Shown here piece by piece: positions 5,614 through 20,849 of a stretch of 64,000 nt of DNA (positions are counted from its first letter, which is position 1; every line of letters starts with the position of its first letter). Both the position numbers and the translations under genes were made by a program. This stretch comes from Saprospiraceae bacterium (GTDB lineage: Bacteria > Bacteroidota > Bacteroidia > Chitinophagales > Saprospiraceae), in contig JADKAE010000004.1 in the NCBI GenBank assembly GCA_016715405.1, positions 119,693 to 183,692 on the forward strand, written 5' to 3'. The notes under the pieces are model-generated. The model ran no database searches. It was not told where the DNA came from and saw only the letters and a program-made list of their open reading frames with translations.

Positions 5614-5661
5614 TAGTTAGTTGAGTTTATTGAAAAAACACGATAGATCGGCTTATGCTTC

Positions 5662-6269: not shown

Positions 6270-6373
6270 TAGGCTTAATCTTTATTATGGAAGATTGATT
6301 GACAAATTACGCTCCTTATTGTAGACAACAAAATCAAGTCTGACACAGTTCACTCTAATATTTTGAAGTGCCA

Positions 6374-7902
6374 TCACCCCAGCAACACCTCCCCATCCAT
6401 CACCTCCGGCGCCGGTAAACCCAGCAGGAACAAAATCGTAGGGGCGATATCGGCCAGTTTGCCGTCTTTTACCCGGAGGCCTTTCGTGTCATTAGCCACA
6501 TAGATGCAAGGCACGGGGTTTTTGGTATGCGCCGTATTGGGCGTGCCGTCGTCGTTGACCATATAATCGGAGTTGCCGTGGTCGGCGATGATGATGGCTT
6601 CGTAGTCGTATTCGAGAGCCAGGGGGATGAGGCGACTCATACAGCCGTCGACGGTTTCGGCGGCCCTGACGGCTGCTGAAAATACGCCGGTATGCCCTAC
6701 CATATCGGTATTGGCGAAATTGAGACAGATAAAATCGGGTTGATTTTGCCGGATGTCGGCCATAATAGCTTCGGCGACTTCGGGGGCGCTCATCTCGGGC
6801 TGGAGGTCGTAGGTAGCCACCTTGGGAGAAGGTATCATGATGCGGCGTTCTCCGGGGAAGGTATCTTCGCGGCCTCCTGAAAAGAAGAAAGTTACGTGGG
6901 GGTATTTTTCCGTTTCGGCGATGCGCACCTGGGTTTTGCCGGCTGCCGACAGCACCTCGCCGAGCGTATTGCTCAAGTCGTCTTTTTGGAATACGACGTG
7001 CACGTTTTTATAAGTATCGTCGTAGCGGGTCATCGTCACGTAGTACAAGTCGAGTTTGTGCATATCGTACTCGGGGAAGTCCTGCTGCGTAAGCACCTGC
7101 GAAATCTCGCGGGGGCGGTCGGTGCGGAAGTTGAAGCAGATCAGGGCGTCGCCTGGTTGGATAGTGGCAATAGGGCTGCCATCGGGGTTTGTGCACACGA
7201 TAGGTTTGACGAATTCGTCGGTTTCGCCTTGTTCGTATTTGTGTTGCAGGAGTGCAAGGGCATCGGAGGAGGCTTCTCCTTTGGCGTGCACGAGCAGGTC
7301 GTAGGCCAGTTTGACGCGTTCCCAGCGCTTATCGCGGTCCATGGCGTAATAACGGCCGATTACGCTGGCCAGTTGGGCGTGCTGGGGGGCGATATGTTGT
7401 TGCAACTCGCGCAGGAAGCCCAGCCCGCTTTTGGGGTCGGTATCGCGGCCATCGAGGAAAGCGTGGATATACACCCGGTCGAGTCCGTGTTCCTGGCAGA
7501 TATCGCAGAGTGCTTCGAGGTGCTTGATATGCGAGTGCACGCCGCCGTCGGATACGAGGCCCATCAGGTGTAAGGCTTTGCCGCCGGCTTTGGCGTATTG
7601 CAGGGCTTCCAGCAGAGTGGCGTTAGTATGCAATTCGCGTTCGCGCACGGCTTTATTAATGCGGGCGAGTTCCTGGTATACGATGCGGCCCGCGCCGATA
7701 TTGAGGTGGCCCACTTCCGAGTTGCCCATCTGGCCGTCGGGAAGGCCCACTTGTTCACCGTGGGTGACCAACTCCGCGTTGGGATATTGCTTATATAGGA
7801 ATCCATAAAAGGCGTATTCGCCTGGGCGATAGCGCTTACTTCGGGTTTGGGGCCGTGCCCCCAGCCGTCGAGAATAACGAGGATAACGCGTGGTGCTTTC
7901 AT
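6374..7902 (-). CDS. gpmI: 2,3-bisphosphoglycerate-independent phosphoglycerate mutase (frame broken once)
   Basis: The N-terminus MKAPRVILVILDGWGHG (ORF 7564-7902) continues in ORF 6374-7969 at ..YPNAELVTHGEQVGLPDGQMGNSEVGHLNIGAGR... and ..IIADHGN. The indel lies near 7790-7797. Confidence 0.9.
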
Positions 7903-7907
7903 GGCTG

Positions 7908-7915
7908 CAAAAATA
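7908..7915 (-). promoter_or_regulatory. Bacteroidota -7 promoter box (TAnnTTTG) for gpmI
   Basis: Forward caaaaata is TATTTTTG on the minus strand, 5 nt upstream of the gpmI ATG. Confidence 0.4.
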
Positions 7916-8178
7916 CAAAAAACAAGCCGATTGGAAGGGAGGAAGTAATAAACAAGCGGCCATATACAATGAAATGAAGTCGGATTTCGTTTCTATGACA
8001 ACTACAACAAGCGACTATTTACAGCATCGTTCTACCCTTCTGATCACTACATCCTGTGCGATTAAAGTTACTTTTGCGAAGGATCTGCGTCTAATCAATA
8101 AATAAAGCATAAGGACCTGTTACTTTTTACACGTATTTCACATTATTCAATAATCGTTTTACCAAAAACTAAAAAACG

Positions 8179-8559
8179 ATGAATACCATACTATCAGTCC
8201 TGTTGCTGAGTGTGTTAGTCAATACCCAAGAGGTAAATCTGAACGCCATTACCAAGGCGATCAGCGAGGGGAATGCCGAGGCGTTGGGGCAATATTTCGA
8301 CCAGTCGGTTGAAGTATCGGTGCTCGACAACGAAGACGTGTATGCCAAAGCGCAGGCGATAAAGGTAGTTAAAGACTTTTTCGCCCAAAATAAACCCAAG
8401 AGTTTCAGCCAGGTACACCAGGGCACCTCTAAGGGTAACGACTCGCAATACTGCATAGGCAACCTGGTAACTGCTACCGGCACTTTCCGGGTATATATTT
8501 ACCTGAAGGTCAACGGCAACAATTATACCATCCAGGAGCTTCGCTTCGACGAAGGCTAA
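8179..8559 (+). CDS. DUF4783 domain protein
   Basis: 126 aa with a signal peptide. ..VYAKAQAIKVVKDFFAQNKPKSFSQVHQGTSKGNDSQYCIGNLVTATGTFRVYIYLK... matches my memory of the DUF4783 family. Confidence 0.75.
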   Translation: MNTILSVLLLSVLVNTQEVNLNAITKAISEGNAEALGQYFDQSVEVSVLDNEDVYAKAQAIKVVKDFFAQNKPKSFSQVHQGTSKGNDSQYCIGNLVTATGTFRVYIYLKVNGNNYTIQELRFDEG

Positions 8560-8597
8560 ATTTAAGAGAGTGTGGGAGAGTGAGAGGGTTCTCTCCT

Positions 8598-9041
8598 TCA
8601 CTTCAGCAGCAATAAATCGTTAAACGCGTAGTTCAGCAAATCGAAAGTAGTCACAATACCTTTTAGTTTGCCGTCATTATCGACTACCGGCATTGCGTGA
8701 AACAGGTTTTCACGGAAGATGTCGGCGGCAAGCTCGATCTTATCTTCCGGGCGTAGTTTGGCTACTTGTTTCACCATCACCTCGCGCACCAACAAGGAGC
8801 GCATAATCGCCTCGTTATATTCCTCGCTTTTTTGCGTATTAAAAATGGTAAAGCCGTGTAGCAATTTCAGGTAGTCGGAATAACTAACGATTCCCACCAC
8901 CTTGCCTTTGTCTACTACTGGTATGTGGTGAATATGGTGCTCCTGGAAAATGGCTTGAACCTTATTCATAGTATCATCAGGAGCTACCGATAGTACTTGG
9001 GTGGTCATAATAGCGGCCACCGTGAGAGATTTGTCAGTCAT
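8598..9041 (-). CDS. CBS-pair domain protein
   Basis: The ORF is 8598-9089; the probable start is MTDKSLTVAAIMTTQVLSV (ATG 9041). It has two CBS motifs (HHIPVVDKGKVVGIVS, HAMPVVDNDGKLKGIVT) and no other domain. Confidence 0.85.
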   Translation of the reverse strand: MTDKSLTVAAIMTTQVLSVAPDDTMNKVQAIFQEHHIHHIPVVDKGKVVGIVSYSDYLKLLHGFTIFNTQKSEEYNEAIMRSLLVREVMVKQVAKLRPEDKIELAADIFRENLFHAMPVVDNDGKLKGIVTTFDLLNYAFNDLLLLK

Positions 9042-9113
9042 AGCCCTGGATTTTTCCGCTGCGAGCCTTGTTACTTGGTAGTAGCGCAAGCCGTGCGGTG
9101 GTTATTCGATTGA

Positions 9114-9557
9114 TTAGCCCCCTTTTTCCACGTAATTCGAATTAAAGACAAAGGACAGCAGGTCGTGAGTAGTGATAATGCCCACCAGTTTGCCTTCATC
9201 TACAATGGGCAATGCGTGGAATTGGTTAGCCAGGAAAATATCGGCGGCCAGTCCTATCGTATCGTCGGGTTCAATAAACAGGGGGTCTTCCGTCATAAAA
9301 TCGCGCGCTCGGAGCGATTCGTAAGCTTTTTCGGAATACCTTTTGCCGCCGGTGTCGAGCGATAGGAGGTAAGCCTGTTTAAAGAAGTCTTCCATACTGA
9401 TGATGCCCAGCAAGGCATCTGTGGCCGATTCTATTACGGGTATATGGTGGAAATTGTTTTTGCGAAAAATCTCTTTCACCATATCGGCGGTAGCATCGGG
9501 TGTAACGGTTACTACCCGGGTAGTCATAATTTCGCGCACAGGACGGTCAGCTTGCAT
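9114..9557 (-). CDS. CBS-pair domain protein
   Basis: 147 aa with two CBS motifs (HHIPVIESATDALLGIIS, HALPIVDEGKLVGIIT). It is a paralogue of the adjacent gene. Confidence 0.85.
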   Translation of the reverse strand: MQADRPVREIMTTRVVTVTPDATADMVKEIFRKNNFHHIPVIESATDALLGIISMEDFFKQAYLLSLDTGGKRYSEKAYESLRARDFMTEDPLFIEPDDTIGLAADIFLANQFHALPIVDEGKLVGIITTHDLLSFVFNSNYVEKGG

Positions 9558-9595
9558 AGCTCAATTGTTTAAATCATGATAGCGAGCGCTTTTCA

Positions 9596-10363
9596 TCAGC
9601 GCTCGGCGAAATAAGTTTTCGAGGCTTCAAAATTGCCAAAAACCCCGATTGCCTCCCAGATGCCGGGCGACAGGCCCTGGCACGCTGCAACCATTTTGTC
9701 GGCTTGCGCGCAGCTCGCCGATTCATTGAGTTGAACCAGGTAGTGCGACATGCGGTCCTTTTGTTGTTGAAGGTATGTCAGCTCGGCTTCGTCCAGCTTA
9801 TACAGCTCGGGGTCGGGAGATTCATTTACAGCCTGCCAGCACGACGTATTCAACAGCGCTATTTGCTGGGCAATGGCTTCCCATTCTGTTTGGCAAGCTC
9901 TTTTATCCGATAGCACTTGTCGCAACCAACTGGAAGCGGCCTGCGCATTGTAGAGATAGTCGGGGTAATAGGCTATTTCACGGCTTTTGCGCAATTCGGT
10001 CCATTCGTAGCGCACGTGTTCGAGCAAGTTGGCTCCTACCACGGCGCAATTGTTGTCAATTTCATATAGGGCATCACCCAGCCAGGCGTCGATGCGGTCA
10101 AATCCGTATTGCCAGGTTTTATCGTCTTCAAAGCGATGGCTGTAGCGCATGTCCACTTTTTGCCATTCAAAAGCCAGGTAGAGGGCTGCGTGTTTAGCGC
10201 GGTTGGCATCTCCCTGCATCGAATAATACAAGACAGGCACAAAGGCCTGGTCGAAATTCACCATAGCGCGTGTGAGCGCTTCGTCGTCGTCGTCTTGCCG
10301 GCAACCAGAAAATATCAAAGCGCCAATGCACAAAGCCCATATGAACACCTTGTTCTTTGCCAT
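9596..10363 (-). CDS. hypothetical lipoprotein, all-helical
   Basis: 255 aa with lipobox LIFSGC. No recognisable family. It is the first gene of an apparent lipoprotein-CBS-CBS unit. Confidence 0.65.
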   Translation of the reverse strand: MAKNKVFIWALCIGALIFSGCRQDDDDEALTRAMVNFDQAFVPVLYYSMQGDANRAKHAALYLAFEWQKVDMRYSHRFEDDKTWQYGFDRIDAWLGDALYEIDNNCAVVGANLLEHVRYEWTELRKSREIAYYPDYLYNAQAASSWLRQVLSDKRACQTEWEAIAQQIALLNTSCWQAVNESPDPELYKLDEAELTYLQQQKDRMSHYLVQLNESASCAQADKMVAACQGLSPGIWEAIGVFGNFEASKTYFAER

Positions 10364-10388
10364 AAGACGTGTGGTTGATGATCTTTAT

Positions 10389-10396
10389 CAAAATTA
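10389..10396 (-). promoter_or_regulatory. -7 promoter box (TAATTTTG on minus strand)
   Basis: Forward caaaatta, 25 nt upstream of ATG 10363. Confidence 0.5.
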
Positions 10397-10406
10397 AGCC
10401 CTAATA

Positions 10407-10436
10407 CCGCTGAAATATTATGACAATATTCAGCGG
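10407..10436. terminator. hairpin after the USP gene
   Basis: ccgctgaaatatt / aatattcagcgg form a 12-13-bp stem with loop atgac, about 55 nt downstream of the stop at 10490. Confidence 0.5.
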
Positions 10437-10441
10437 CCGGG

Positions 10442-10455
10442 TTGATTTTTATCAG
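10442..10455. promoter_or_regulatory. FNR/FixK-type palindrome TTGAT-N4-ATCAG
   Basis: ttgatttttatcag. Its centre at 10448.5 is 59.5 bp from the G end of the -7 box at 10389. Confidence 0.55.
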
Positions 10456-10489
10456 AAAAAGAAAGGGGTCGGTAACCAGCACAACAGGC

Positions 10490-11656
10490 TCAATCGTGCA
10501 ATACCAACAGCGGGATTTTTGTGTGAAATGCTTCTTTGGATGTGGTGCTGACATGAAAAACTTCGTCGACGAGGTTGCGACTGCGGTGTACCATACACAG
10601 CATGTCGGCGCCGTTGTCGGCCACAAAATCGTCGATACTGGTAATCGTGCCGTTGTCGCTTTTTAGTTCGTAGTGGAAGGAGTGCTCTACAGGCTCCAAT
10701 AATTGGTCGACAGAGGGATCGATGCCCTGGTCGGCTTCGCCCGTATCTTTGTGATAAATTTTGACCTTGACGTGAAAGCGCTGGGCCAGTTTCAGCAGGG
10801 CGTCTACCACCAAGCCGGAAGACAACTTCAGGTTGTCGATGGCCAATACGAAGGTTTGTAATGGCTTAAAAACAGCCGATTCGGGGATAGCCAGCACGGG
10901 GGTGCGCGTATTTCGTATTACACCGTTGGTGACGCTGCCAATGAACACCTCGCGAAGGCCGGTAGCGCCCTTGGTGCCCATCACAATGAGGTCGTATTCG
11001 GAAAGATCAGCCAGGTCGGCTATTACCGATACGGCATCGCCGCGCAATACTTTGGCTTCCATCGTTACGCCCAGCTCGAGTTTGGGTTTATTTTGTGCAA
11101 TAATCTTGCCAACCTCTTCGATGGCGTCTTGTTGGATGATCGACTCTACAGACAAAAACATGCCGGCAGAGCTATACACCTTGTAGGTGTGCAGCAAGGT
11201 GATCTTCGACCCAAAAGCGTTGGCTATGGCTATGGCGTAATCGAGGGCATTGCCGGCAGGGGCGGAAAAATCGGTAGGAACCAGTATCTTTTTCATAGGA
11301 ATATCTTTTGGTTCAAGATCCAGAAAATTAATCAGCAACTGCCTGAGTTCTGATACACTGGGAACCTCCTGTTGAAAAAGCACCTTCCCATTGATCGCAA
11401 GAGCGGGAATACCTGAAATATCGTACTGTAGAAGTTTGTCAATTTCTGTGACTTCTTCTACCGGCATATCAAGAGACAGCTCTGCCAATGCTTCAAGCAA
11501 ATTAGCCTTAAGCTTGCGATTAAGCGCTGATCCGATGCCCAAGAGTTCCAGCTTGGGGCGCTCTTTATGAGATGTCTTCTTAAATAACATGCAACCGAAG
11601 TAAACTACGGGATTTTTCGCCTTCCGGAAAACCATCTCGCAACTCGCGCCATACAC
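10490..11656 (-). CDS. Cys-less thioredoxin-fold (TM0983-like) domain fused to tandem universal stress protein domains
   Basis: Single ORF. Residues ~35-115 (LELLGIGSALNRKLKANLLEALAEL...GIPALAINGKVLFQQEVPSVSELRQLL) resemble the small Thioredoxin_3 family, with CxxC replaced by SALN. Then MKKILVPTDFS... gives two USP domains (DLIVMGTKGATG..., ADMLCMVHRSRN). A GTG start at 11656 fits the -7 box; an internal ATG at 11296 would give USP alone. Confidence 0.7.
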   Translation of the reverse strand: MYGASCEMVFRKAKNPVVYFGCMLFKKTSHKERPKLELLGIGSALNRKLKANLLEALAELSLDMPVEEVTEIDKLLQYDISGIPALAINGKVLFQQEVPSVSELRQLLINFLDLEPKDIPMKKILVPTDFSAPAGNALDYAIAIANAFGSKITLLHTYKVYSSAGMFLSVESIIQQDAIEEVGKIIAQNKPKLELGVTMEAKVLRGDAVSVIADLADLSEYDLIVMGTKGATGLREVFIGSVTNGVIRNTRTPVLAIPESAVFKPLQTFVLAIDNLKLSSGLVVDALLKLAQRFHVKVKIYHKDTGEADQGIDPSVDQLLEPVEHSFHYELKSDNGTITSIDDFVADNGADMLCMVHRSRNLVDEVFHVSTTSKEAFHTKIPLLVLHD

Positions 11657-11678
11657 CGGGCGTTCCCTTTATTTATGG

Positions 11679-11686
11679 CAAAAATA
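11679..11686 (-). promoter_or_regulatory. -7 promoter box (TATTTTTG on minus strand)
   Basis: Forward caaaaata, 22 nt upstream of the GTG at 11656. Confidence 0.5.
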
Positions 11687-11731
11687 CCCTAAAGTCAAGG
11701 GCCAAGTTCCCTGGCCTTGTCATTCTATCCA

Positions 11732-11745
11732 ATGATTTTTATCAT
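11732..11745. promoter_or_regulatory. FNR/FixK-type palindrome ATGAT-N4-ATCAT
   Basis: atgatttttatcat. Its centre at 11738.5 is 59.5 bp from the -7 box end at 11679. It lies in the divergent intergenic region between the USP gene and the FixL-like gene. Confidence 0.55.
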
Positions 11746-11829
11746 TGCAACCATATGTCCATTTCACTTATGCGGGCGGGAATAAAAATCTTTCTCCTCA
11801 ACCATGCGTGCGTTCACAAAATGATCGCT

Positions 11830-11837
11830 TATTTTTG
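11830..11837 (+). promoter_or_regulatory. -7 promoter box TATTTTTG for the kinase gene
   Basis: An exact TAnnTTTG match, 13 nt upstream of ATG 11851. Confidence 0.45.
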
Positions 11838-11850
11838 GCATTCTTAAACT

Positions 11851-13135
11851 ATGCTTAAATCAAGTATTTCAGACGACGCGCTACGGCTAAAGGCCATCAT
11901 CGAAACTGCCACAGACGTTATTATCATTATTGACGAAAATGGCGCGGTTGAATTGGCCAACGAAGCCGCTTTCCGTCTCTTTGGGTATACCCGCGAAGAG
12001 CTGGTGGGCCAAAATATTGCCATGGTAATGCCCGAACCCCACCGCAGCCGGCACGATGAATATATCAGGCGCTATTGCGAAACCGGCCACAAAAAAATTA
12101 TCGGCATAGGCCGCGAGGTGGAAGGCCGCCGCAAGGATGGCACCGTCTTTCCTCTGCGCCTCAGTGTAAGTGAAGTAAAATTGCAGGATAAACGCATCTT
12201 CGCCGGCATTATTCACGACCTCTCCGAACAACGCGCCGCAGAAAGTCGCATTATCAAGCTGAATGCCGAACTCGAACAACGCGTCGAGATGCGCACCGAA
12301 GAACTCGCCAACGCAGTGAATCAACTGCTCAAGATTAACAAAAAACTGGAACGCGAAATCAAGGAACGAGAAGCCGCCGAAATGCTGATTAAGGAAAATG
12401 AAACAAGGCTCAAGGATGCGCTTCAAAGAGAAAAAGAACTCAGCGAACTCAAGTCGCGCTTCGTGTCGATGGCTTCTCACGAATTTCGCACCCCCCTCAG
12501 CACGATCCTATCTTCCGCCGACCTCATAGAAGCCTATGTCGCCGGTGAACAACAACCCAAACGCGAAAAACACGTCAAACGCGTCAAATCGGCAGTGGCC
12601 ACGCTTACCGGTATCCTCAACGACTTTCTTTCCCTCAGCAGGCTGGAGGAAGGCCAAATCGTTACCGAACCCGTGCATTTTCAACTCCGCAGTTTTTGCG
12701 ACGAAATCACCGACGAAATTCACGGACTGCTCAAACCCGGCCAGCATATCGTACACCTCATCCCGGAAGAACCCGTGAATTTGTTTTTGGACAAAAAATT
12801 TCTTAAAAATATTTTCTTTAACCTCTTGTCCAACGCCATTAAATACTCCGACGCCGATCTTCCTATCGAATGCGAAACCACGCTGAAAGACGACAAGCTC
12901 TGCATTCGCATCACCGACCAGGGTATCGGTATCCCCGAAGAAGAACAACAACACCTCTTTACCCGCTTTTTTCGCGCCCACCATGTGGAAAATATTCAGG
13001 GTACCGGTCTCGGCCTGAATATCGTGAAGCGATACGTAGAACTCATGCGGGGGCTATTTCTTTGAAAGCGAATTGAGCAAAGGCACCACTTTCGTTGTAG
13101 AAATTCCGCTAGTGCAGGAAAAAAACGAGCTTTGA
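11851..13135 (+). CDS. FixL-like haem-PAS sensor histidine kinase (two indels near the 3' end)
   Basis: The PAS segment MPEPHRSRHDEYIRRY..IIGIGREVEGRRKDGTVFPLRLSVSEV..FAGIIHDLSEQ parallels the Bradyrhizobium FixL haem pocket. It also has a coiled coil, H-box MASHEFRTPLS, and N/G boxes NLLSNAIKYS, DQGIGIP, GTGLGLNIVK. The expected C-terminus ELHAGAISFESELSKGTTFVVEIPL is recovered by single-base repairs near 13044 and 13061. Confidence 0.85.
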
Positions 13136-13224
13136 GCCGTACATCCCAGGAAAAAGCATGGCGGGTGCTACTTTTTTACTAATTTAGCCCTATTGACCTT
13201 ATTGACCAATAGTCTGTTGCACAC

Positions 13225-14267
13225 ATGAAGAAAATACTCGTTATAGAAGACAATGCCGACGTAAGGGAAAACCTGGAAGAGATTCTCGAATTATCCGGCT
13301 ATGATGTCCTGCTCGCAGAAGATGGCACGGTAGGCGTGGAAAAAGCGCTCAAAGAAATGCCCGACCTCATCTTGTGCGATGTGATGATGCCCAAACTCGA
13401 CGGCTACGGCGTACTCAATATCCTGAGCAAAAAAAGCCAGACTTCAAATATTCCCTTTATTTTCTTACCGCTAAAGCGGAAAAAACCGATTTCCGCAGGG
13501 GCATGAATCTCGGCGCCGACGATTATATCACCAAGCCATTTTATAAAGACGAATTACTATCGGTGATCGAAACCCGCCTGCGCAAAAGCGAACTGGTGCG
13601 CAAGCAGTTTGACCGTACCGAACAAGGCCTCAGCGCTTTTATCAACGACGTGCGCGGCTACGAGGAATTGCGCAAACTGTCGAGCGAGCGCAAGACAAAA
13701 AACCTCAAAAAACGCGAAATGCTCTTCGAAGAAGGCGATTACCCGCGGTATATTTATTTTGTAAAAGGCGGTAATGTCAAGGTCTTTAAAACCAATGAAG
13801 ACGGCAAAGAGTATATCATCACTATCGCCGGCCCCGGGGATTTTCTGGGTTACATGGACCTCATCAAGGAAAGCCGCCATACCGAATCGGCTGCGGCCCT
13901 CGAAGAGGCCGAGGTGAGCCTCATCCCCAAAGAAGATTTTATCGCCCTGCTCTACGCCAACCGCGACGTATCTTCCCAGCTTATCAAGATGCTGGCCAAT
14001 AATATCGCTGAAAAAGAAGAACAACTCCTCCACCTGGCCTATAACTCGGTGCGCAAACGCGTGGCCGACGCCGTGCTGCTGCTCGCCGAAAAAACGGACT
14101 CCGGCGATATCAATATCCTGCGCGATGACTTAGCCCGCATTGTGGGCACAGCCAAGGAAAGTGTGATCCGCATGCTCACCGAATTCAAAGAAGACGGCTA
14201 TATCGATATCAAAGACGGTATTATCGTGGTGAAAAATCGCGATAAGCTGCGGAATATGCCCGGTTGA
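13225..14267 (+). CDS. response regulator: receiver domain fused to Crp/Fnr-type cNMP-binding-like and HTH domains (one indel)
   Basis: REC domain MKKILVIEDN..LILCDVMMPKLDG..IPFIFL|TAKAEKTDFRRGMNLGADDYITKPF, with a 1-nt deletion near 13467. A Crp-like beta-barrel (MLFEEGDYPRYIYFVKGGNVKVF) and HTH (IVGTAKESVIRMLTEFKEDGYI) follow. The REC C-terminal half and the Crp part share one uninterrupted ORF (13374-14267). Confidence 0.85.
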
Positions 14268-14270
14268 TAA

Positions 14271-14344
14271 GAGAATGGGAGAGGGGAGAGGAGGGGCGAG
14301 AACTGTATCCCCGCTCTCCCCTCACCCCCTCACCCCCTCCCTCT
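14271..14344. terminator. periodic-arm hairpin (GGGAGAG / CTCTCCC type) between convergent genes
   Basis: gagaatgggagaggggagaggaggggcgag / ccccgctctcccctcaccccctcaccccctccctc. The right arm overlaps the last natB codons. Confidence 0.5.
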
Positions 14345-15555
14345 GAGTAGCTTCCAATTCACCTTCTCTCCCGTTACCACGTTTTCATTGCCGAAGATGT
14401 GCGATGCCAGGTAAAGCGCCAGCAATCCATACAGCAAGGCAAAAAACACGACCAATACCATTGCGGGCAGGCTGAACGTGCCTTTGAAGATGGCGCCGAT
14501 GGCCAGACAAATATTGAGCACGGGTACCAGCGCGGTAGTCATCGTAAGCTCCATGCCGGGCATCTGGGCCATCACAGCCGGGATGAGCACCAGCATCATG
14601 AGGGGCGACACGTAACTTTGTGATTCTTTGTACGAATTGGCCAGCAGCGATACCGCCATGCTGAGCGCCGCCAGGAAAACCGTAGACAAAACGATGAGCG
14701 TGATCATCCATACCCAGCCCTGCGCACTGACGGCCAGCGAAATAGCGCTCACATTGCCGCCCATAATTTTGGCTTGCAACAACACGGCAAATACCAAACT
14801 AAACAGGTTCATCAGGGCAGAGGCGAGGCCTACGCAGGCCACCGCCAGGAATTTACCCGCGATGATCTCCCGCACGTTTACCGGAGTAGTAAACAGCGTT
14901 TGCAGGGTGCGCCGCTCTTTTTCGCCGGCGGTAATGTCGATGGCGATGTATATGCAACCTGTGAAGATAAACAACATCAGCAGCATAGGCGCGTATGTAC
15001 CCAGTACTTTGCCGATTCGTTGACTCGGTTTGGCCAGGTCTTCTTCCTGTATCAACAGGGGCTGGGCGAAGGTGGGCGGCAGTTTTACGCCCTGCAGGCG
15101 CTCTTCGAGCAGCGACTGGTTGAGTTTGTTGAGCAAGCCGGTTATGGATTGCTTGCGACCGTCGAGCAGGTCTTTTGAGAAGTCGCCTGTTATGCGCAGG
15201 ATCACCGACTCGTTGGCGGCAAGCCCGGCGGCGTAATTGCCGTCTACCCGGATGCCTATGGTGTTTTTCTCTTCGGTCAGCGCCTGGCTGTCAAATGCCT
15301 GCACTTTGACTACAAACGAGGGGTCGCTGCCAATTAGCCCAGGCACCGGCGTCTGCTCCAGTGCCGGGTCGATGAGCACGGTCACTTTTTCCTGCTGCAT
15401 CTTGCCGGCCTGGCTTTGCCCTACCTTGCCGATGAGGAAAAACAAGGCCGGATACAGGAAAAACGGCAGCAATATGACGAGGTACAAGGTGCGCTTGTCG
15501 CGCAAACCTCGAGGATTTCTTTGCGGAATATGGTATTGATGATGGAGGTACGCAT
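14330..15555 (-). CDS. natB: ABC-2 type transporter permease, NatB-like (one indel)
   Basis: 391-aa ORF with multi-pass C-terminal helices. The true N-terminus MRTSIINTIFRKEILEVLRDKRTLYLVILLP is recovered from ATG 15555 if one A is added to the AAA run at 15504-15506. Confidence 0.8.
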
Positions 15556-15565
15556 GTGTTGTGGT

Positions 15566-15640
15566 TTTAGCAATTAGCTCTTAGCAATTAGCGGTCAGTT
15601 CTTTGAAGCTGATTGCTGTTAGCTGACTGCTGATTGCTAA
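15566..15640. terminator. periodic-arm hairpin (TTAGCAA type) between natA and natB
   Basis: tttagcaattagctcttagcaattagcggtcag / ctgattgctgttagctgactgctgattgctaaa. It abuts the natA stop and ends 11 nt before the natB ATG. Confidence 0.5.
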
Positions 15641-16365
15641 AATTGGACCATTTCAAAAAACGCATCGGCCAGCCGGGCCTGATTGGTGGCGGCGAGGGCC
15701 GAATCTATATCGCCGTGGTGTTGGAGGCGGCCTTTGTGGATAATCACCACGCGGTCGCACAGGCGCTCCACTTCGTCGAGGTGGTGCGTGGAGAAGATCA
15801 CAGCTTTGCCGTTCTCCCTGGCCATACGGCGAATGAATTGCAGGATAAACTCGCTGGCCATGATATCGAGTCCGGTGGTGGGTTCGTCGAGGACTACCAC
15901 TGCCGGGTCGTGCACCAGGGTGCGGGCGATGGATACGCGTTGCTTTTGCCCAGTGGACAATTTTTCGCAGTGTTTGTCTTTAAAATCGCCGATGCCGAAG
16001 GCTTCTACCAGTTCGTCGATGCGGCGCCGGAGCTCGGGCCGTGGTACTTCGTAAAGTTGACCGAAGTAGGTGAGGAGTTCTACGGGGGTAAGGCGCCTGT
16101 ACAGGTCCATGTCGCCGGTGAGGAAGCCGAGTGCGCGGCGTGCGACCAGGGGTTCTTTTTGCACCGAGTGTTGGTTGATAAAAGCTTCGCCGGCGGTGGG
16201 GGCGAGCAGTCCGGCCAACATGCGCAGCGTGGTGGTCTTACCGGCGCCGTTGGGGCCGAGCAGTCCCACGATCTCGCCGGGGTGTACTTCAAAACTGACC
16301 TCTTGCACGGCATGTACCTCGCCAAAGCGTTTTCCCAGATTGCGGGCTTCTATTGATGCGGGCAT
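15637..16365 (-). CDS. natA: ABC transporter ATP-binding protein, NatA-like
   Basis: 242 aa with Walker A GPNGAGKTT, signature LSTGQKQRV and Walker B VVVLDEPTTGLD. Confidence 0.9.
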   Translation of the reverse strand: MPASIEARNLGKRFGEVHAVQEVSFEVHPGEIVGLLGPNGAGKTTTLRMLAGLLAPTAGEAFINQHSVQKEPLVARRALGFLTGDMDLYRRLTPVELLTYFGQLYEVPRPELRRRIDELVEAFGIGDFKDKHCEKLSTGQKQRVSIARTLVHDPAVVVLDEPTTGLDIMASEFILQFIRRMARENGKAVIFSTHHLDEVERLCDRVVIIHKGRLQHHGDIDSALAATNQARLADAFFEMVQF

Positions 16366-16522
16366 ACGTGATTGTTTTTTTATGGGTTAGTAGAGGGGAG
16401 GGGGGATTTCTTACGGGAAGGTTTGCTTTTTTCCACGAATACAAGATAATATCCGATTATTTGCAATACAAATTCGATAAATAAACTTATCCCACATTAA
16501 CTTCGCATAAAAAGCCCCCATA

Positions 16523-17044
16523 GTGGAGCAGCAGTTCAAAGAGTTGATAGACCGCCACAACGGCATTTTGTACAAAATAGCCCGTTCGTACGCGCCGGAG
16601 CGGGAAGACATGCGCGACTTGTACCAGGAGATGCTGGTGCAGGTATGGCGGGCGCTGCCCGATTTCCGGGGGGAATCGCAGGCCTCTACCTGGATGTACC
16701 GCATTGCGCTCAACACGGCTTTGTCGTACCAGCAAAAACAACGCCGGCAGCAGACTGTGTTGCGGGGCGACGAATATTTTCCAGTAGTAATAGACGAAGG
16801 CATCGGCGCCGCGCAAGCCCAGCAACATCGCATCGACCTGTTGTACCGCTGCATCAGCAAGCTCGACAAAGATGAAAGAGCTATCATACTGCTCTACCTC
16901 GATGAAAAAAGCTACGAAGACATGGCGACAATCCTTGGTATTTCCGTCAACCTGGTGGGCGTGAAAATCCATCGCATCAAGAAAAAATTGCAGCAATTGC
17001 TGCTCGAAAACGAAGAATGGGTGAACGTCTGGCAGGAAGAATAA
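16523..17044 (+). CDS. ECF-type RNA polymerase sigma-70 factor
   Basis: 173 aa with a GTG start. Region 2 (DLYQEMLVQVWRALPDFRGESQASTWMYRIALN) and region 4 (ERAIILLYLDEKSYEDMATILGISVNLVGVKIHRIKKKL) are present. Confidence 0.85.
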   Translation: MEQQFKELIDRHNGILYKIARSYAPEREDMRDLYQEMLVQVWRALPDFRGESQASTWMYRIALNTALSYQQKQRRQQTVLRGDEYFPVVIDEGIGAAQAQQHRIDLLYRCISKLDKDERAIILLYLDEKSYEDMATILGISVNLVGVKIHRIKKKLQQLLLENEEWVNVWQEE

Positions 17045-17053
17045 AAGCGAGCT

Positions 17054-17671
17054 ATGGAAGAATTGGATCTTCGATCGATATGGAAAGACAATGATGCGGC
17101 TGCCGGATCTTACTACCGGCAGTTGAGCGACGAGGTGATGGCCCTGGCCCGCCGTCGTTCGCGCAGCGTGATCGACAAGGTAAAGCGCATCATTGTGATT
17201 GAATTTGTCGCAGGCCTCGCGATTGCCGTTGCGGCGGCGATCGGTACCTGGAAATACGCCTCCCAACCCGTCTTTTTCCTTTTGGTTATCGCGGGGGCAC
17301 TGGTGGCGGGCTGCTACCCCTACTACTGGCTGTGGCGGCGCATGCGGCACATCCACGAAAAGCCGGTATTGGAAGCCCTCGACGAACAGATTGTGATTTT
17401 GCAGTCGTATATTAGCCACGTAGTATGGCTGGTGGGCGCTTTATTGCCATTGGGTTACATCTCCGGATTTTTCATCGGCGCCATAGAAGGCGGCGCACCC
17501 TGGCCCGGCGTATTGTTGTCGTGGAAAATGTGGGCTATTGCGGCGCCCCTCGGCGTTGGGATTTGCTGGTTGATCGTATTTTTTACAAAAAAATATATGA
17601 ATGCCACCATAGGGCGGCAGGTAGCAGAACTCAGGCGGATTAAATTGGAATTGGAACACGAAGTGCAATAA
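17054..17671 (+). CDS. hypothetical membrane protein downstream of the ECF sigma gene
   Basis: 205 aa with about four predicted TM helices, starting 9 nt after the sigma gene. No zf-HC2 anti-sigma motif was seen. Confidence 0.6.
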   Translation: MEELDLRSIWKDNDAAAGSYYRQLSDEVMALARRRSRSVIDKVKRIIVIEFVAGLAIAVAAAIGTWKYASQPVFFLLVIAGALVAGCYPYYWLWRRMRHIHEKPVLEALDEQIVILQSYISHVVWLVGALLPLGYISGFFIGAIEGGAPWPGVLLSWKMWAIAAPLGVGICWLIVFFTKKYMNATIGRQVAELRRIKLELEHEVQ

Positions 17672-17682
17672 CAGGAGGCGGA

Positions 17683-18821
17683 ATGTCATTTTCACTACTC
17701 AAGCTGGCTTTACTGGCCGGCGCCGCTCAGGGCGCCATTCTGGGATTGCTGCTTTGGACCCGCCCGGTGAATCGCGAAGCCAACCGCATTTTTGCTTTCC
17801 TGCTTTTTCTGCTCACCATCCACCTCACGTTGGTCGCTTTTGACGAGCGCGATTTTTTATGCGTTTTCCACATCTCAGCCACCTCACCTGGCTGATCCCC
17901 GTACTGTATGGCCCGCTGACCTTGATCTACGTGCGCCGGCTTACCCATATTGCGCCTGCTTTTCAAAAAAAAGAACTGCTGTACCTTTTGCCTTTTTTGG
18001 TTTGGTTAATGGTGCAATTGCCCTATTTCCTCCAATCGGCAGCGGCCAAAAGGGCCTATCTGGGCAATTGGGAATTGTCGGTACAGGACGATTTCGGCTT
18101 GCTCAACCAACTGACCAATTTCGTACACTTGCTTTTTTTCGGGCTTTGCATACGCGTTTACCACAAACACGAACACCGCATTCCCGATTTCTATTCCGAT
18201 CTGACGAAAGTGCGCCTGCTGTGGTTGCAGCGTTTTTTGTATATCACCTTTGCCATTACCGCTATCGGCGTTTTTATTTTTTATGCAAAAAAACTGGACT
18301 GGCCCTATTTGTCGGGCTTATACCCATTCCATTTCCTGGGCGTAGTGGTACTCATCTACTGGACGGCCTACCAGGCCATAGCCCATCCCGTGCTTTTTTC
18401 GGCCGAAGTATATCCCTCGCCCGAAGAACAAGCGGAAGAGGCGCCGCCCTCGCGCCTCGACAACGCTACGCAGCAGGCCATGGCCGGGCAGTTGAAAAAA
18501 CTCATGGAAGAAGAGCATTTGTATTTAAATAGCGAGTTGACCTTAAAAGACCTCAGCGACCGGTTGCAATCCAACAAGCAATACGTGTCGGAAGTACTCA
18601 ATAGCTATATCGGCAAAACCTTCTACGATTTTGTCAACGACTACCGCATCGAAGCTTTCAAACGCCTGGCCGCCGATCCCTCCAACTCCAGCCTTACGCT
18701 ATTGGCACTGGCCCTGGAAGCCGGATTTAATTCAAAAGCCACCTTTAACGCCGTTTTCAAAAAGAAAACAGGCCTTACACCTTCCGCTTTTTATAAAGAA
18801 CAGCATATTAAAGAGGTCTGA
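17683..18821 (+). CDS. membrane-anchored AraC family transcriptional regulator (one indel)
   Basis: ORFs 17683-17895 and 17859-18821 join (..VAFDERDFFMRFPHLSHLTW..) if the T6 run at 17853-17858 is T7. The N-terminus has several TM helices. The C-terminal HTH_18 is LTLKDLSDRLQSNKQYVSEVLN...EAGFNSKATFNAVFKKKTGLTPSAF. Confidence 0.8.
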
Positions 18822-18885
18822 ATAGATCAATTCGGACGACTGGCAAAACCCCACGGTTCATCTTTGCTGAAAAATGATTCAAAAG

Positions 18886-19491
18886 ATGAAACGATTGCTA
18901 TTTGTTCCTTACCTGCGCCTCGCGCTTATGGCAGCCTTGCCGGCCGCCGTACTACCGGGGCTTCATGCGCAAGACGCGCCGCCACCTCTGCAATGGGATA
19001 TAGCCGCCGGAATGGGCTCCATCCACATGCCCGGGTTGGGCGCCGACTGGCAACACGCTCACACAGTAGTATACGCCGGAGTGGAGCAGCCCTTCAACCA
19101 GCGCCGCACCCTGAGCCTGGCCCTGCGATTTAGCTATGCCCGCGGCAAATACCAGGGCGACGCCGTGTCAACCCAACTGCTGTTTACTTTTTCTCCACTT
19201 ATCGCAAATGCCATCGAACCCGGCATAGGGCTTGGCGTGGGGTATCAGCGCGCGTTTTCCCCTTCAAAATCGATGCATTGGGATGGTGAAAGCTGGACCG
19301 CGGGAAAACAGTCCAAGGGATTATTCCACGTGCCCCTGCGCCTTAGTCTGGGCTACAAAGCAAAAGGCAAACAGTACGACTTTACGCCCTACGTGGCCTA
19401 TCAACTCCAGGCGCTGTTTGGCTACAGTCCCGACCTGAGCCTTTTGCCCCAATCTCATGCATTAATTGGTTTAAAAATTGCTTCACACTAA
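18886..19491 (+). CDS. hypothetical secreted / outer-membrane beta-barrel-like protein
   Basis: Signal peptide MKRLLFVPYLRLALMAALPAAVLPGLHAQ, alternating beta-strand pattern, and an aromatic residue near the C-terminus. Confidence 0.55.
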   Translation: MKRLLFVPYLRLALMAALPAAVLPGLHAQDAPPPLQWDIAAGMGSIHMPGLGADWQHAHTVVYAGVEQPFNQRRTLSLALRFSYARGKYQGDAVSTQLLFTFSPLIANAIEPGIGLGVGYQRAFSPSKSMHWDGESWTAGKQSKGLFHVPLRLSLGYKAKGKQYDFTPYVAYQLQALFGYSPDLSLLPQSHALIGLKIASH

Positions 19492-19503
19492 AAATCAGTG
19501 ACC

Positions 19504-20649
19504 ATGAATAAGTCCATTTTCTTTTTCCTGCTGGCAACCATTCTCTTTTTTGTCAGCGCTTGTCAAAAAGACGTTTACCAATGCGATCACCCTGCCGCCA
19601 CCGACGACGTAGTGATCAACCGCAACCACCCGATGAAAGACTCACTGGAAGCCATTATCGACAAATACGTCGACCTGGGCATACCTGGCGTGCAGGTGGC
19701 GGTTAAAAACGCCGACGGCTGGTATATCACCGGCGGAGGTTATGCCAAAATAGAAGACAAAAGCCCGCTGAGCAGCGGCATGAAGAGCTGGTATTTCAGT
19801 CTGACTAAAACCTACACCGCGGCTCTGGCCATGCAATTGTGGGAAGAAGGACAGTTGCAACTCGACGCGCCCATCGGCAATTACCTCGCCCCGGAGGTAG
19901 CCGGCGGCATTGCGGGCAGCAACACCATCACGGTGCGCATGTTGCTCAACCACAGCTCGGGTATCGTAAACTTCACCGAATTGCCGGCCTTCCAACTGGG
20001 GCAGTTAAACAACCCATTGGATCAACCCACGCTCGAAGAAAAACTGGAATTGGTATACGGGCAGCCGCTGCTGTTCACGCCGGGTAGCGATTTCAGTTAT
20101 TCCAATACCAATTATTTGCTATTGCATCTTATTATTGAAAAAGCGAGCGGCAAGACCTACGAGCAATTGCTGAAAGAAAAGATCATACAGCCGCTGGGAT
20201 TACAGCATACCCATTACAACCTGGCCAGTGCCGAGATGGCGTCAATGCCCTTTCCCAATTACTACTTCGACCGCTTTGCCAACGAGCAGTTGGAGAACAT
20301 TACCATGTGGAATATGGCACTGGGCAATACGAGTCTGGCCTACGGCGGCATAGCCGGCACCGCTGCCGACGCCATCCGCTGTTACGAAGCGCTCAACAAA
20401 GGCCAGGTAGTAGGCGCCGCCGCCCTGGCAGAGATGCGCACCTGGATACAAGGCCACGAATCCACACAACCCGATTACGGCCTGGGACTGGAATACTACC
20501 AATACGGCCTCAACGGCGATGCCGGGCAGTACGGCCACGAAGGCGACGGCATCGGTTGCACCACGCAGATGATGTATGTGCCTGCTAATGATACCTATTT
20601 GTATATCAATATCACCGCCGGCAGGCAGCTTTGGGCCTTATCTGTTTAA
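19504..20649 (+). CDS. serine hydrolase, class C beta-lactamase/PBP-like lipoprotein
   Basis: Lipobox FFVSAC, SxxK motif SLTKTYTA and YSN motif (FSYSNTNY). The 3' end may carry an indel; an alternative frame continues GPYLFKTTDFKIAL. Confidence 0.8.
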   Translation: MNKSIFFFLLATILFFVSACQKDVYQCDHPAATDDVVINRNHPMKDSLEAIIDKYVDLGIPGVQVAVKNADGWYITGGGYAKIEDKSPLSSGMKSWYFSLTKTYTAALAMQLWEEGQLQLDAPIGNYLAPEVAGGIAGSNTITVRMLLNHSSGIVNFTELPAFQLGQLNNPLDQPTLEEKLELVYGQPLLFTPGSDFSYSNTNYLLLHLIIEKASGKTYEQLLKEKIIQPLGLQHTHYNLASAEMASMPFPNYYFDRFANEQLENITMWNMALGNTSLAYGGIAGTAADAIRCYEALNKGQVVGAAALAEMRTWIQGHESTQPDYGLGLEYYQYGLNGDAGQYGHEGDGIGCTTQMMYVPANDTYLYINITAGRQLWALSV

Positions 20650-20773
20650 AACTACGGATTTTAAGATAGCCTTGTGCCGCTATACGGCCCGCTGGAGGCC
20701 TTAACCAGCTTTCGTTTCATAGTATGGGCGTCTTGCACACCGGCTGCGAGGCGCCCGCTGTTTTATGAAACGT

Positions 20774-20830: not shown

Positions 20831-20849
20831 AAAATAAAATCCATACCCA

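Follow-up and report, generated by a model that had tools for sequence, protein, structure and literature searches.

In the Saprospiraceae DNA analysed here, a window of 64,000 nt to whose positions all coordinates refer, a sensor histidine kinase and a response regulator are encoded next to each other. The two proteins probably form a two-component system that senses O2 or a related haem ligand and controls a low-oxygen and stress regulon through a receiver domain joined to a Crp-type output (REC-Crp). This reading builds on the domain content of both proteins, the conservation of their haem-ligand and phosphorylation sites, the intactness of the genes, the adjacency of kinase and regulator, and the enrichment of a palindrome together with the genes downstream of it. 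The pair is real and intact, and it is common in Bacteroidota.

Gene organization and integrity

The kinase gene (11851..13135, + strand) and the regulator gene (13225..14267, + strand) are both interrupted in the window. According to the ORF list, the kinase frame begins at 11851 and breaks at 13065, with the stop codon of the gene at 13133-13135, and the regulator is split into ORFs 13225-13506 and 13374-14267. These positions agree with those of the initial annotation, as does the distance of 89 nt between the kinase stop codon and the regulator start at 13225. The same annotation had repaired the frames and read the receiver and Crp parts as one protein, and both steps proved correct. In GCA_963852055.1 (locus L001), a public genome that shares 99% identity with the window, both genes are intact and encode 428 aa and 347 aa, and the repaired regulator is 100% identical to the intact public protein P0001; the REC-Crp fusion is thus a real single gene and no artefact. 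In Pfam, the repaired kinase matched PAS, HisKA and HATPase_c and the repaired regulator Response_reg, cNMP_binding and HTH_Crp_2, all of them above the curated cut-offs.

Three homopolymer runs are each one base shorter in the window than in GCA_963852055.1, namely a G run at 13049 and T runs at 13061 and 13460. The deletions at about 13049 and 13061 break the kinase inside its HATPase_c domain, and that at about 13460, in the T run, breaks the regulator. Three frame-breaking single-base deletions across both genes could be taken as genuine, which would make the pair a pseudogene remnant that is inactive in this strain. This is hardly credible, since all three deletions lie in homopolymer runs, indels of the same kind are scattered over the comparable 19 kb (43 events), and they also split a gene for an EF-G-like GTPase in another part of the window. 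Moreover, the two deletions in the kinase are 12 nt apart and the frame is jointly restored in the reference alone; no decay other than the indels is seen in the coding sequence; and the 99%-identical genome carries both genes whole. Real pseudogenes were therefore ruled out, because the indels are homopolymer errors.

The haem-PAS kinase

Residues 12-126 of the kinase (11884..12228, + strand) form a FixL-type haem-PAS domain, as judged from a gapless alignment with Bradyrhizobium japonicum FixL (BjFixL), an AlphaFold model and Foldseek. It aligned with the haem domains of BjFixL at 46-50% identity (E=3e-35 to 1e-31), with Escherichia coli DosP at about 1e-18, and with generic PAS/LOV domains at 1e-8 at best. 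His68 (CAC, codon 12052-12054) aligns with BjFixL His200, the proximal His, Arg74 with the haem-propionate Arg206, and Arg88 with Arg220, the distal Arg at the end of the FG loop; the distal pocket is lined by Ile83/Ile84, Leu104 and Val106. Both His68 and Arg88 were invariant among 30 homologues. The homologue search with the PAS domain alone returned mostly short fragments, which served for an alignment; some Saprospiraceae fragments are already labelled 'FixL' by NCBI and JGI. The AlphaFold model of the domain reached a pLDDT of 90.6, and its top 20 Foldseek matches were all FixL haem domains, with a target-normalised TM of 0.92-0.95 for single haem-domain entries and an rmsd of 1.2-1.6 Å for most of the 20. 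The initial proposal of a FixL-type haem-PAS domain that keeps the proximal His and both Arg residues is thereby borne out.

One result seems at odds with this assignment. The NCBIfam equivalog model sens_FixL_Rhizob gave the kinase 185 bits, far under its cut-off of 850, and haem binding is deduced from sequence and model. It could thus be argued that the PAS domain is generic, ligand-free and merely FixL-like, and that the kinase answers an unrelated cue. We consider this highly improbable. The low score is explained by the fact that the PAS part alone matches, generic PAS domains fit about 27 orders of magnitude worse than FixL, and the gapless identity of 46-50% extends to every key pocket residue, with His68 invariant. 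The FixL-type partner kinases of related loci differ at one of these positions: where BjFixL has Arg206, 23 of 43 carry Asn and 15 carry Arg, so that ligand affinity or selectivity may differ from that of FixL.

The transmitter has another affinity. Its HisKA (DHp) domain (12451..12654, + strand; Pfam 1.5e-13) contains the phospho-acceptor His210 (codon 12478-12480) in the H-box SHEFRTPL, and the N, G1, F and G2 boxes are all visible in the HATPase_c catalytic domain (12790..13115, + strand; 3.3e-27). This DHp/CA core matched HK853/WalK/VicK-type kinases at 1e-33 to 1e-24, as against about 1e-6 for the BjFixL cores (4gcz, 8a3u). Neither the core comparison nor the sens_FixL_Rhizob model identified a FixL-type transmitter. 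Judged by these comparisons, the FixL-likeness of the kinase is limited to its PAS domain and the transmitter is HK853/WalK-like; therefore, the sign of signalling of FixL cannot simply be transferred to it.

The REC-Crp regulator

The receiver domain of the regulator (residues 4-115; 13234..13568, + strand; Pfam Response_reg 4.4e-28) carries the phospho-acceptor Asp52 (codon 13378-13380) along with Glu8, Asp9, Thr82 and Lys104, and all five residues were invariant in 12 homologues. The closest solved receivers belong to the OmpR/PhoB family. No FixJ-type GerE/LuxR helix-turn-helix was detected with Pfam; the output consists of cNMP_binding and HTH_Crp_2. The former is a Crp-type beta-barrel (residues 159-243; 13698..13952, + strand; 4.8e-22) and the latter a Crp-type winged helix-turn-helix (residues 279-344; 14058..14255, + strand; HTH_Crp_2 4.6e-13, Crp 9e-5). 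The recognition helix reads TAKESVIRML, and residues 299-322 were nearly all invariant among homologues. In the barrel the phosphate-binding cassette is degenerate: in the alignment with Thermus thermophilus CRP (4ev0), it has GY in place of GE and TE in place of RS, so the Glu and Arg-Ser/Thr of the cAMP cassette of CRP proper were not found. The replacing Gly209 and Tyr210 are themselves invariant in REC-Crp homologues. Sequence and Pfam analysis revealed no FNR-like Cys motif before the barrel, the N-terminus being occupied by the receiver.

Among solved structures the Crp part matched CRP 4ev0 at 5e-24, FNR at 4e-15 and FixK2 at 6.5e-9, and it also matched MtbCRP; on these sequence scores it is closer to CRP than to FNR or FixK2. 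The AlphaFold model of the full regulator was of moderate quality (pLDDT 72, pTM 0.41, linker below 50). Its domains have the folds that were expected: a (beta/alpha)5 receiver fold (residues 1-50 with pLDDT above 90), a barrel (158-235), a helix (247-290) and the helix-turn-helix (300-343). The linker and the placement of the domains are of low confidence, and the model is therefore silent on how the receiver might control the Crp module. Foldseek with this model retrieved no solved chain that spans both halves.

Predicted operator and neighbouring genes

A palindrome, aTGAY-N4-RTCAt, precedes the kinase in 42 of 63 related loci, where shuffled sequences gave 1.6 on average and 5 at most. Tandem copies spaced by 22-23 bp occurred in 12 cases, and the density of the palindrome was 10-20 times higher within 300 bp upstream of the kinase than in the rest of the loci. 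It is AT-rich and sits in AT-rich intergenic DNA. Among all 4-mer palindromes with gaps of 2-8, ATGA-N6-TCAT ranked first and TGAT-N4-ATCA second, which argues against a pure composition effect. The window holds five TGAT-N4-ATCA sites where 0.76 are expected, and three of the five are intergenic at the kinase-regulator locus. These predicted operators, to which no strand is assigned, are TGATTTTTATCA (full palindrome CAATGATTTTTATCATTG; 11733..11744) between the divergently transcribed Usp and kinase genes, in their promoter region, and a distal TTGATTTTTATCAG (10443..10454) and a proximal ATGATCTTTATCAA (10379..10390) site upstream of an operon that starts with a gene for a 255-aa protein, the proximal one 21 nt before its start. 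Motif sites at 24116, 27270, 58564, 62380 and 63757 were taken as chance occurrences, those at 24116 and 63757 lying inside long ORFs. A scan for sigma-70 promoters and terminators, with models unsuited to Bacteroidota promoters, stayed at chance level. Visual inspection showed TAnnTTTG-like -7 boxes some 60 nt downstream from two of the predicted operators; they were given no weight.

The gene divergent from the kinase encodes a Thioredoxin_3 domain with a universal stress protein (Usp) domain (10490..11656, − strand; Pfam Usp 6e-35, Thioredoxin_3 3e-10) and is a predicted regulon member. Among the 81 loci that were compared, counting L001, 42 have a Usp homologue, and the operator precedes it in 21. 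The 255-aa protein (9596..10363, − strand), with its two predicted operators upstream, has a lipoprotein-like N-terminus; it had no Pfam match and is conserved in four loci only. It is followed by a CBS-pair protein of 147 aa (9114..9557, − strand), also a predicted regulon member and annotated as CBS in L001, and by a second CBS-pair protein of 163 aa (8598..9089, − strand; ORF list and L001). A CBS-pair representative from another locus (L006), 60% identical to the 147-aa protein, matched Pfam CBS at 9e-29. In 33 of the 81 loci the pair has CBS genes as neighbours, and in 25 such genes lie downstream of a predicted operator.

Over the loci, the palindrome is followed by the kinase in 43, by CBS genes in 25 and by Usp genes in 21. 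Further genes behind it encode a P-type ATPase with ATPase-cat_bd (FixI/CcoI-like; six loci), Hsp20 (three) and COX1 with FixO, i.e. a fused CcoNO of a cbb3-type oxidase (two). The small numbers of cco and fixI loci are explained by the short flanks that were compared; within the window there are no such targets.

Distribution and partner kinases

With matches at E<=1e-30, the REC-Crp architecture comprises about 2,700 clusters at 50% identity and is encoded in at least 576 species genomes. These figures come from family-specific search patterns and a library of representatives that has no taxonomic labels. All 80 REC-Crp genomes that were fetched belong to Bacteroidota. Database names of the members are 'response regulator' and 'CRP-like cAMP-binding protein'. 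The initial annotation knew of no characterised REC-Crp regulator, and indeed a full-text literature search found no study of a REC-Crp regulator, although Galperin's 2006 census of response regulators, which lay outside its scope, may list the architecture. The rarity that the annotation implied did not hold, as thousands of members exist in databases. The same kind of search found no study of FixL in Bacteroidota; its one match from Flavobacterium, RgzAB, is a GAF hybrid kinase and unrelated.

Among 69 related loci that have a gene directly upstream of the regulator, this gene encodes a FixL-type haem-PAS kinase with His and distal Arg kept in 43. Around 11 further loci have a second type of PAS domain, whose best matches are still the haem domains of FixL, 10jx and DosP; this second class of partner kinases carries Met at the distal-Arg position. 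Cultured carriers of the regulator include Phaeodactylibacter xiamenensis KD52, Flavilitoribacter nigricans DSM 23189 and Ferruginibacter sp. SUN002, and of these three only the Phaeodactylibacter locus has the FixL-type kinase directly upstream.

Discussion

We propose that the kinase is a soluble protein in which the ligation state of a single FixL-type haem-PAS domain would set autophosphorylation at His210. As in FixL, the deoxy form would be active and the O2-bound form inhibited. The phosphoryl group would then pass to Asp52 of the regulator encoded downstream, in which the receiver is followed by a helical linker and a complete Crp/Fnr module of beta-barrel, dimerisation helix and winged helix-turn-helix. 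The nucleotide pocket is degenerate and, therefore, phosphorylation rather than cAMP or an Fe-S cluster would switch DNA binding. The active dimer would bind aTGAY-N4-RTCAt, often as tandem pairs about 22 bp apart, and would control its own operon and a low-oxygen and stress regulon. In the window this regulon would comprise the divergent Trx-Usp gene and the operon of the 255-aa protein and the two CBS proteins; in relatives Hsp20, the FixI/CcoI-like copper ATPase and the cbb3-type oxidase CcoNO would be added. Most likely, the regulator activates the low-oxygen genes. Haem binding, O2 as the signal, phosphotransfer, the binding of the palindrome and the direction of regulation are what we infer from the domains, the conserved residues and the genes behind the operator.

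Haem-PAS domains also serve as redox, CO or NO sensors, and the same architecture might respond to NO, CO or the redox state of the haem iron and govern nitrosative or redox stress instead of hypoxia. DosP-type relatives score next best after FixL, the Arg206 equivalent varies, with Asn prevailing, a second class of partner kinases has Met for the distal Arg, and Usp, CBS and Hsp20 are general stress genes. Yet we regard this as rather unlikely. In FixL the distal Arg (R220) contacts the bound O2, and its equivalent is invariant in the FixL-type class; furthermore, a cbb3 oxidase of high affinity and the copper ATPase that belongs to it are among the predicted targets, and such genes are classic members of FixK regulons at low O2 (PMC4999443). 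The regulator, for its part, might integrate two inputs, if its barrel were a real sensor for a cyclic nucleotide or other small metabolite in addition to the phosphorylation of the receiver. The match to the cNMP_binding fold is strong, and Gly209-Tyr210 and Glu221, which replace cassette residues, are invariant or nearly so, which suggests a conserved pocket; the conserved Gly-Tyr and Glu-Ser could reflect another ligand. However, both the Glu and the Arg that hold the ribose-phosphate in CRP are absent, and the barrel works without a nucleotide in many Crp/Fnr members, including FixK2, which leaves a double input quite unlikely. Switching by phosphorylation under control of a haem sensor of O2 or a related ligand is the reading preferred here.

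The initial annotation saw in the pair a FixL-FixJ-FixK cascade collapsed into two proteins. As a statement on function this stands as probable: the TGA-N6-TCA palindrome is conserved at the locus and, in related genomes, precedes the ccoNO, FixI/CcoI-like, Usp, CBS and Hsp20 genes, and the pair therefore probably does the job of FixL-FixJ-FixK in two proteins, with one tier fewer. As a statement on descent it fails, because only the PAS domain is FixL-like, while the core resembles HK853/WalK, the receiver OmpR/PhoB, and the Crp part is nearer to CRP. With the cascade of rhizobia and Caulobacter (BjFixL, RmFixL) the pair shares the haem-PAS fold, the proximal His and the distal Arg, and a Crp/Fnr-class DNA-binding module downstream. 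Unlike the cascade it lacks the FixJ (REC-LuxR) tier; its kinase has one PAS domain and no PAS-A, with a HK853/WalK-like transmitter; its receiver is OmpR/PhoB-like, its Crp part closer to CRP than to FixK2, and its phylum is Bacteroidota. FixK/FnrN boxes share a TTGA-N6-TCAA core, and cco genes belong to FixK regulons (PMC4999443). The predicted box has the same TGA-N6-TCA core, and its predicted targets likewise include a cbb3 oxidase and a fixI-like gene; its flanking base, however, is A (ATGA...TCAT) where FixK has T (TTGA...TCAA), and FixK2 is a distant match. A FixL sensor wired to an OmpR-type, non-FixJ receiver is known from the hFixL-FxkR-FixKf system of Rhizobium etli and Rhizobium leguminosarum, in which fixKf is induced by FxkR, an OmpR-type regulator that stands apart from it, so that the cascade keeps three tiers (PMC4999443). 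The overall logic, from O2 sensor to Crp/Fnr-type output, would be the same, but the present regulator holds its OmpR-like receiver and the Crp module in one polypeptide.

Beyond this locus, we lean slightly towards the view that REC-Crp regulators and haem-PAS kinases constitute the main phylum-wide O2-response system of aerobic Bacteroidota, covering Saprospiraceae, Lewinellaceae, Chitinophagaceae, Cytophagales, Sphingobacteriales and some Flavobacteriales. On this view REC-Crp would add a class of response-regulator output not described before, with phosphorylation instead of cAMP or the Fe-S cluster as the switch of the Crp/Fnr fold. It would have an operator code of its own, ATGA-N6-TCAT as against GTGA for CRP and TTGA for FNR/FixK, and a second haem-PAS subclass with a distal Met. 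O2 sensing in aerobic Bacteroidota is essentially unstudied, although activated sludge, soils, lakes and marine particles, where O2 fluctuates, harbour these bacteria in large numbers. The pair is a concrete candidate: the haem chemistry of its type of sensor is well understood, and both an operator and a regulon, the high-affinity cbb3 oxidase included, are predicted for it. If the proposal is true, receiver phosphorylation would be a third mode of control of the Crp/Fnr fold beside nucleotide and Fe-S cluster. The combination of a FixL sensor with a WalK/HK853-type transmitter and of an OmpR-like receiver with a Crp output is a natural case of re-wired domains, relevant to the evolution of two-component systems and to the engineering of gas-responsive circuits.

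Other O2-responsive systems resemble the pair in parts. FNR carries its own O2 sensor, a [4Fe-4S] cluster at the N-terminus. Like FNR/ANR, the regulator has a Crp/Fnr fold that would act as a dimer on a palindrome with a TGA-N6-TCA core, and it is predicted to control low-O2 respiration; unlike in FNR, the N-terminal extension is a receiver without a Cys cluster, and sensing would be left to the haem kinase. In Mycobacterium tuberculosis, the haem kinases DosS and DosT drive, through DosR (DevR), a regulon rich in Usp, a CBS-pair protein and alpha-crystallin/Hsp20. The Usp, CBS and Hsp20 classes recur among the targets predicted here. DosS and DosT, however, use haem-GAF and not haem-PAS domains, and the output of DosR is of the NarL/LuxR type; the present sensor is a haem-PAS domain, the output is Crp-type and the operator unrelated. 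The haem-PAS domain of E. coli DosP (EcDos) comes second, in both structure and sequence, among the relatives of the sensor domain. Its distal ligand is Met, of which the second class of partner kinases, with Met at the distal-Arg position, is reminiscent; the output of DosP, however, is a c-di-GMP phosphodiesterase and that of the present sensor a histidine kinase.

Gene structure and sequence errors

In the window, a sensor kinase gene (11851–13135, plus strand) is followed by a regulator gene (13225–14267, plus strand) in which a receiver domain is joined to a Crp/Fnr module (REC-Crp). As listed, the kinase ORF starts at 11851 and its frame is broken at 13065, and the regulator gene appears as two plus-strand ORFs (13225–13506 and 13374–14267). 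Such breaks could mark real pseudogenes. However, reading through into the next frame gives the kinase a normal C-terminus and the regulator a continuous receiver domain, and both genes are intact (428 and 347 aa) in the public genome GCA_963852055.1 (contig CAWKQD010000007.1), which is 99% identical to the window across about 21 kb. Its single regulator gene is 100% identical to the frame-repaired translation, which bears out both the fusion and the frame repair of the initial annotation. Relative to this genome, one base is missing from the window at each of 13049, 13061 and 13460, all in homopolymer runs. Across 19 kb (window 4946–24263), the matching locus L001 of that genome differs by 101 substitutions, which are clustered (e.g., 11889–12027), and 43 indels, many of them single-base and homopolymeric. 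An EF-G-like translation GTPase is also divided by a frameshift (40342–41652 and 41692–42471, minus strand), and the last residues of its N-terminal ORF are out of frame. Because similar indels are scattered over the 19 kb and this gene is split likewise, the kinase and regulator frameshifts are attributed to assembly errors; the homopolymer indels, the other split gene and the intact public copy make pseudogenisation very unlikely. The differences between the two genomes suggest a distinct strain plus long-read-type errors. A low-complexity stretch of ~190 nt (4760–4945), rich in C- and A-homopolymers and absent from L001 (1725 joined to 1727), seems to stem from faulty assembly or reads and not from biology.

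A FixL-type PAS domain on a different transmitter

In Pfam, the repaired kinase contains the expected PAS (5e-20), HisKA (1.5e-13) and HATPase_c (3e-27) domains. A generic PAS domain is an unlikely alternative: LOV and generic PAS domains match this region only at about 1e-8, whereas residues 11–141 align without gaps to the haem domain of Bradyrhizobium japonicum FixL (BjFixL; E = 3e-35), followed by Sinorhizobium meliloti FixL (3.5e-32) and Escherichia coli DosP (about 1e-18). BjFixL His200, Arg206 and Arg220 correspond to His68 (codon 12052–12054), Arg74 and Arg88, and the hydrophobic distal positions to Ile83, Ile84, Leu104 and Val106, so that the haem-pocket alignment of the initial annotation is reproduced by computation. 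Among 30 homologues, His68, Tyr71, Ile83, Ile84, Gly85, Gly87 and Arg88 are invariant. The AlphaFold model of the domain (pLDDT 90.6) retrieved FixL haem domains as its best 20 PDB matches, with DosP after them; the target-normalised TM was 0.92–0.95 against single haem-domain entries, and the rmsd was 1.2–1.6 Å for most of the 20. Outside the PAS domain, the kinase is not FixL-like. Its DHp/CA core matches HK853, WalK/VicK and KdpD-type kinases (1e-33 to 1e-23) and the BjFixL core, taken from chimeric structures, only at about 1e-6; the NCBIfam FixL equivalog model scores 185 of the 850 bits required, all owing to the PAS part. The PAS domain is of the FixL type, and the transmitter is instead of the WalK/HK853 type.

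The REC-Crp regulator

The repaired regulator likewise contains the three expected domains, Response_reg (4e-28), cNMP_binding (5e-22) and HTH_Crp_2 (5e-13). The receiver residues E8, D9, D52, T82 and K104 are all present and invariant among homologues, and the closest receivers belong to the OmpR/PhoB family (e.g., RpaA/B, PhoP, PhoB, MtrA). The C-terminal 190 residues form a complete Crp/Fnr module, related to the solved CRPs of Thermus thermophilus (4ev0, 5e-24), Mycobacterium tuberculosis (2e-18) and E. coli (1e-16) and to FNR (4e-15). Unlike the output of the FixL-FixJ-FixK cascade, this part is CRP-like, FixK2 being only a distant match (6.5e-9). The barrel might bind a second ligand; however, where 4ev0 has the Glu and Arg-Ser that contact cAMP, the aligned regulator has Tyr and Thr-Glu, which makes canonical nucleotide binding unlikely. 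The regulator has no FNR-type Cys cluster, since its N-terminus is the receiver. Compared by eye with CRP and FNR, the recognition helix (TAKESVIRML) retains the Glu and Arg by which these proteins read the TGA core, with Lys at the position of CRP Arg180. In the full-length model (pLDDT 72, pTM 0.41), the domains are well folded and the linker is of low confidence; the PDB search found no single chain spanning both halves.

Distribution and partner kinases

A word-indexed search with the regulator scored ~8,000 candidates, of which the top 120 all contain the three Pfam domains, are named 'response regulator' or 'CRP-like cAMP-binding protein', and are assigned to Saprospiraceae, Chitinophagales, Haliscomenobacter or Phaeodactylibacter. 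When 1.84 billion cluster representatives were searched exhaustively, 2,705 matched at E ≤ 1e-30, and nearly all of the best 150 span both halves, a minority being truncated fragments. When one genome per species was scanned, at least 576 species had a relative. All 80 loci fetched are from Bacteroidota (Saprospiraceae, Lewinellaceae, Chitinophagaceae, Cytophagales, Sphingobacteriales, Flavobacteriales). A same-strand ORF lies immediately 5' of the regulator in 69 of these 80, and 43 of the 69 encode a FixL-type PAS domain retaining the His and distal Arg. From this pairing across related loci, haem-PAS kinase and REC-Crp regulator are a conserved module, not a one-off.

Less probably, the kinase responds to a haem ligand other than O2. 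The distal Arg, kept in all 43 FixL-type kinases, favors O2; at the Arg206 position, 23 of these kinases have Asn and 15 have Arg. About 11 further loci (Chitinophagaceae, Roseivirgaceae and others) have a kinase with a different PAS domain directly upstream of the REC-Crp gene (L043, L046, L049, L052, L054, L055, L059, L064, L067, L068, L073). Its best matches are S. meliloti FixL (2e-15), the haem-PAS 10jx and DosP; the proximal His is kept, and a 'PMGxGM/R' motif places Met, sometimes Arg, at the distal-Arg position. These domains may constitute a separate subclass of haem-PAS whose ligand chemistry differs. About a dozen loci (L018, L025, L026, L030, L045, L079 and others) have no kinase upstream of REC-Crp, and so the partner must be encoded elsewhere; here a predicted operator immediately precedes the regulator, adjoining a divergent CBS gene.

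Predicted operator and candidate targets

The opposite strand upstream of the kinase carries a Thioredoxin_3-Usp gene, two CBS-pair genes and, between Usp and CBS genes, a 255-aa gene without a Pfam family and with a lipoprotein-like N-terminus (9596–10363, minus strand). Of 81 loci (L001 included), 42 have a Usp homologue beside the kinase-regulator pair and 33 a CBS-pair homologue; the 255-aa gene adjoins the pair in only 4 loci. The Usp-kinase intergenic region contains a perfect palindrome, CAATGATTTTTATCATTG (11730–11747), and the 255-aa gene is preceded by two similar predicted sites. TGAT-N4-ATCA occurs five times in the window (0.76 expected), three of them at these intergenic sites. 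In related loci, the 300 bp before the kinase hold the exact motif at 10–20 times the density seen elsewhere. When all 4-mer inverted repeats (gaps of 2–8) in these upstream regions were ranked without bias, ATGA-N6-TCAT came first, TGAT-N4-ATCA second and TGAC-N4-GTCA third. TGAY-N4-RTCA precedes the kinase in 42 of 63 loci, compared with 1.6 in shuffles (maximum 5), and A and T are preferred in the flanks. Tandem pairs of predicted sites are frequent (L021, L042, L048, L056, L057, L066, L067, L075 and others), spaced exactly 22 bp in 10 cases and 23 bp in 2; 22 bp amounts to two helical turns, which suggests that two dimers bind cooperatively to the same face of the DNA. The FixK/FnrN box has the consensus TTGA-N6-TCAA, and cco genes belong to FixK regulons (PMC4999443). 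The predicted operator shares the TGA-N6-TCA core of this box and differs in the flanking base.

Among genes starting at most 300 bp downstream of intergenic predicted sites in the related loci were the kinase gene in 43 loci, those for CBS-pair (25) and Usp (21) proteins, the regulator itself without a preceding kinase (10), a P-type ATPase (about 800 aa) whose ATPase-cat_bd domain is typical of FixI/CcoI (6), Hsp20 (3) and a fused COX1+FixO protein, the CcoNO of cbb3 oxidase (2).

Model of the signaling pair

The best-supported reading is a two-component system responsive to oxygen or a haem ligand. Phosphorylation would switch the Crp/Fnr fold of the regulator, which would autoregulate and control a low-oxygen/stress regulon. 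We infer each of haem binding, ligand identity, sign of control, phosphotransfer and operator binding. The initial annotation proposed a FixL-FixJ-FixK cascade collapsed into two proteins. Functionally, this probably describes the pair, which would equal the three-tiered cascade without its middle tier; by descent it does not, as the pair is a separate assembly in which a WalK/HK853-type transmitter carries a FixL-type PAS domain and a CRP-like output is joined to an OmpR-like receiver. The domains are all known, and databases hold thousands of automatically named members, with some kinase fragments already labelled FixL. In agreement with the initial annotation, a literature search turned up neither experimental nor comparative work on this pair, on any other REC-Crp regulator or on a Bacteroidota FixL, although a listing in a census paper is possible. 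The pair makes oxygen sensing directly testable in a major, little-studied phylum.

Other genes in the window

A PIN-domain and a DUF2281 gene a few kb before the locus (L001 2435–3042; window about 5650–6260, minus strand) probably form a toxin-antitoxin module. Bacteroidota-typical surface and secretion genes occupy 26225–35142 and 56975–59302, including a 956-aa protein that bears a Por_Secre_tail (T9SS) sorting domain, SprB-repeat proteins (1117 and 455 aa) with a CHU_C domain, and a subtilase containing fn3 and GEVED domains. Such genes would fit a gliding organism of the Saprospiraceae type.
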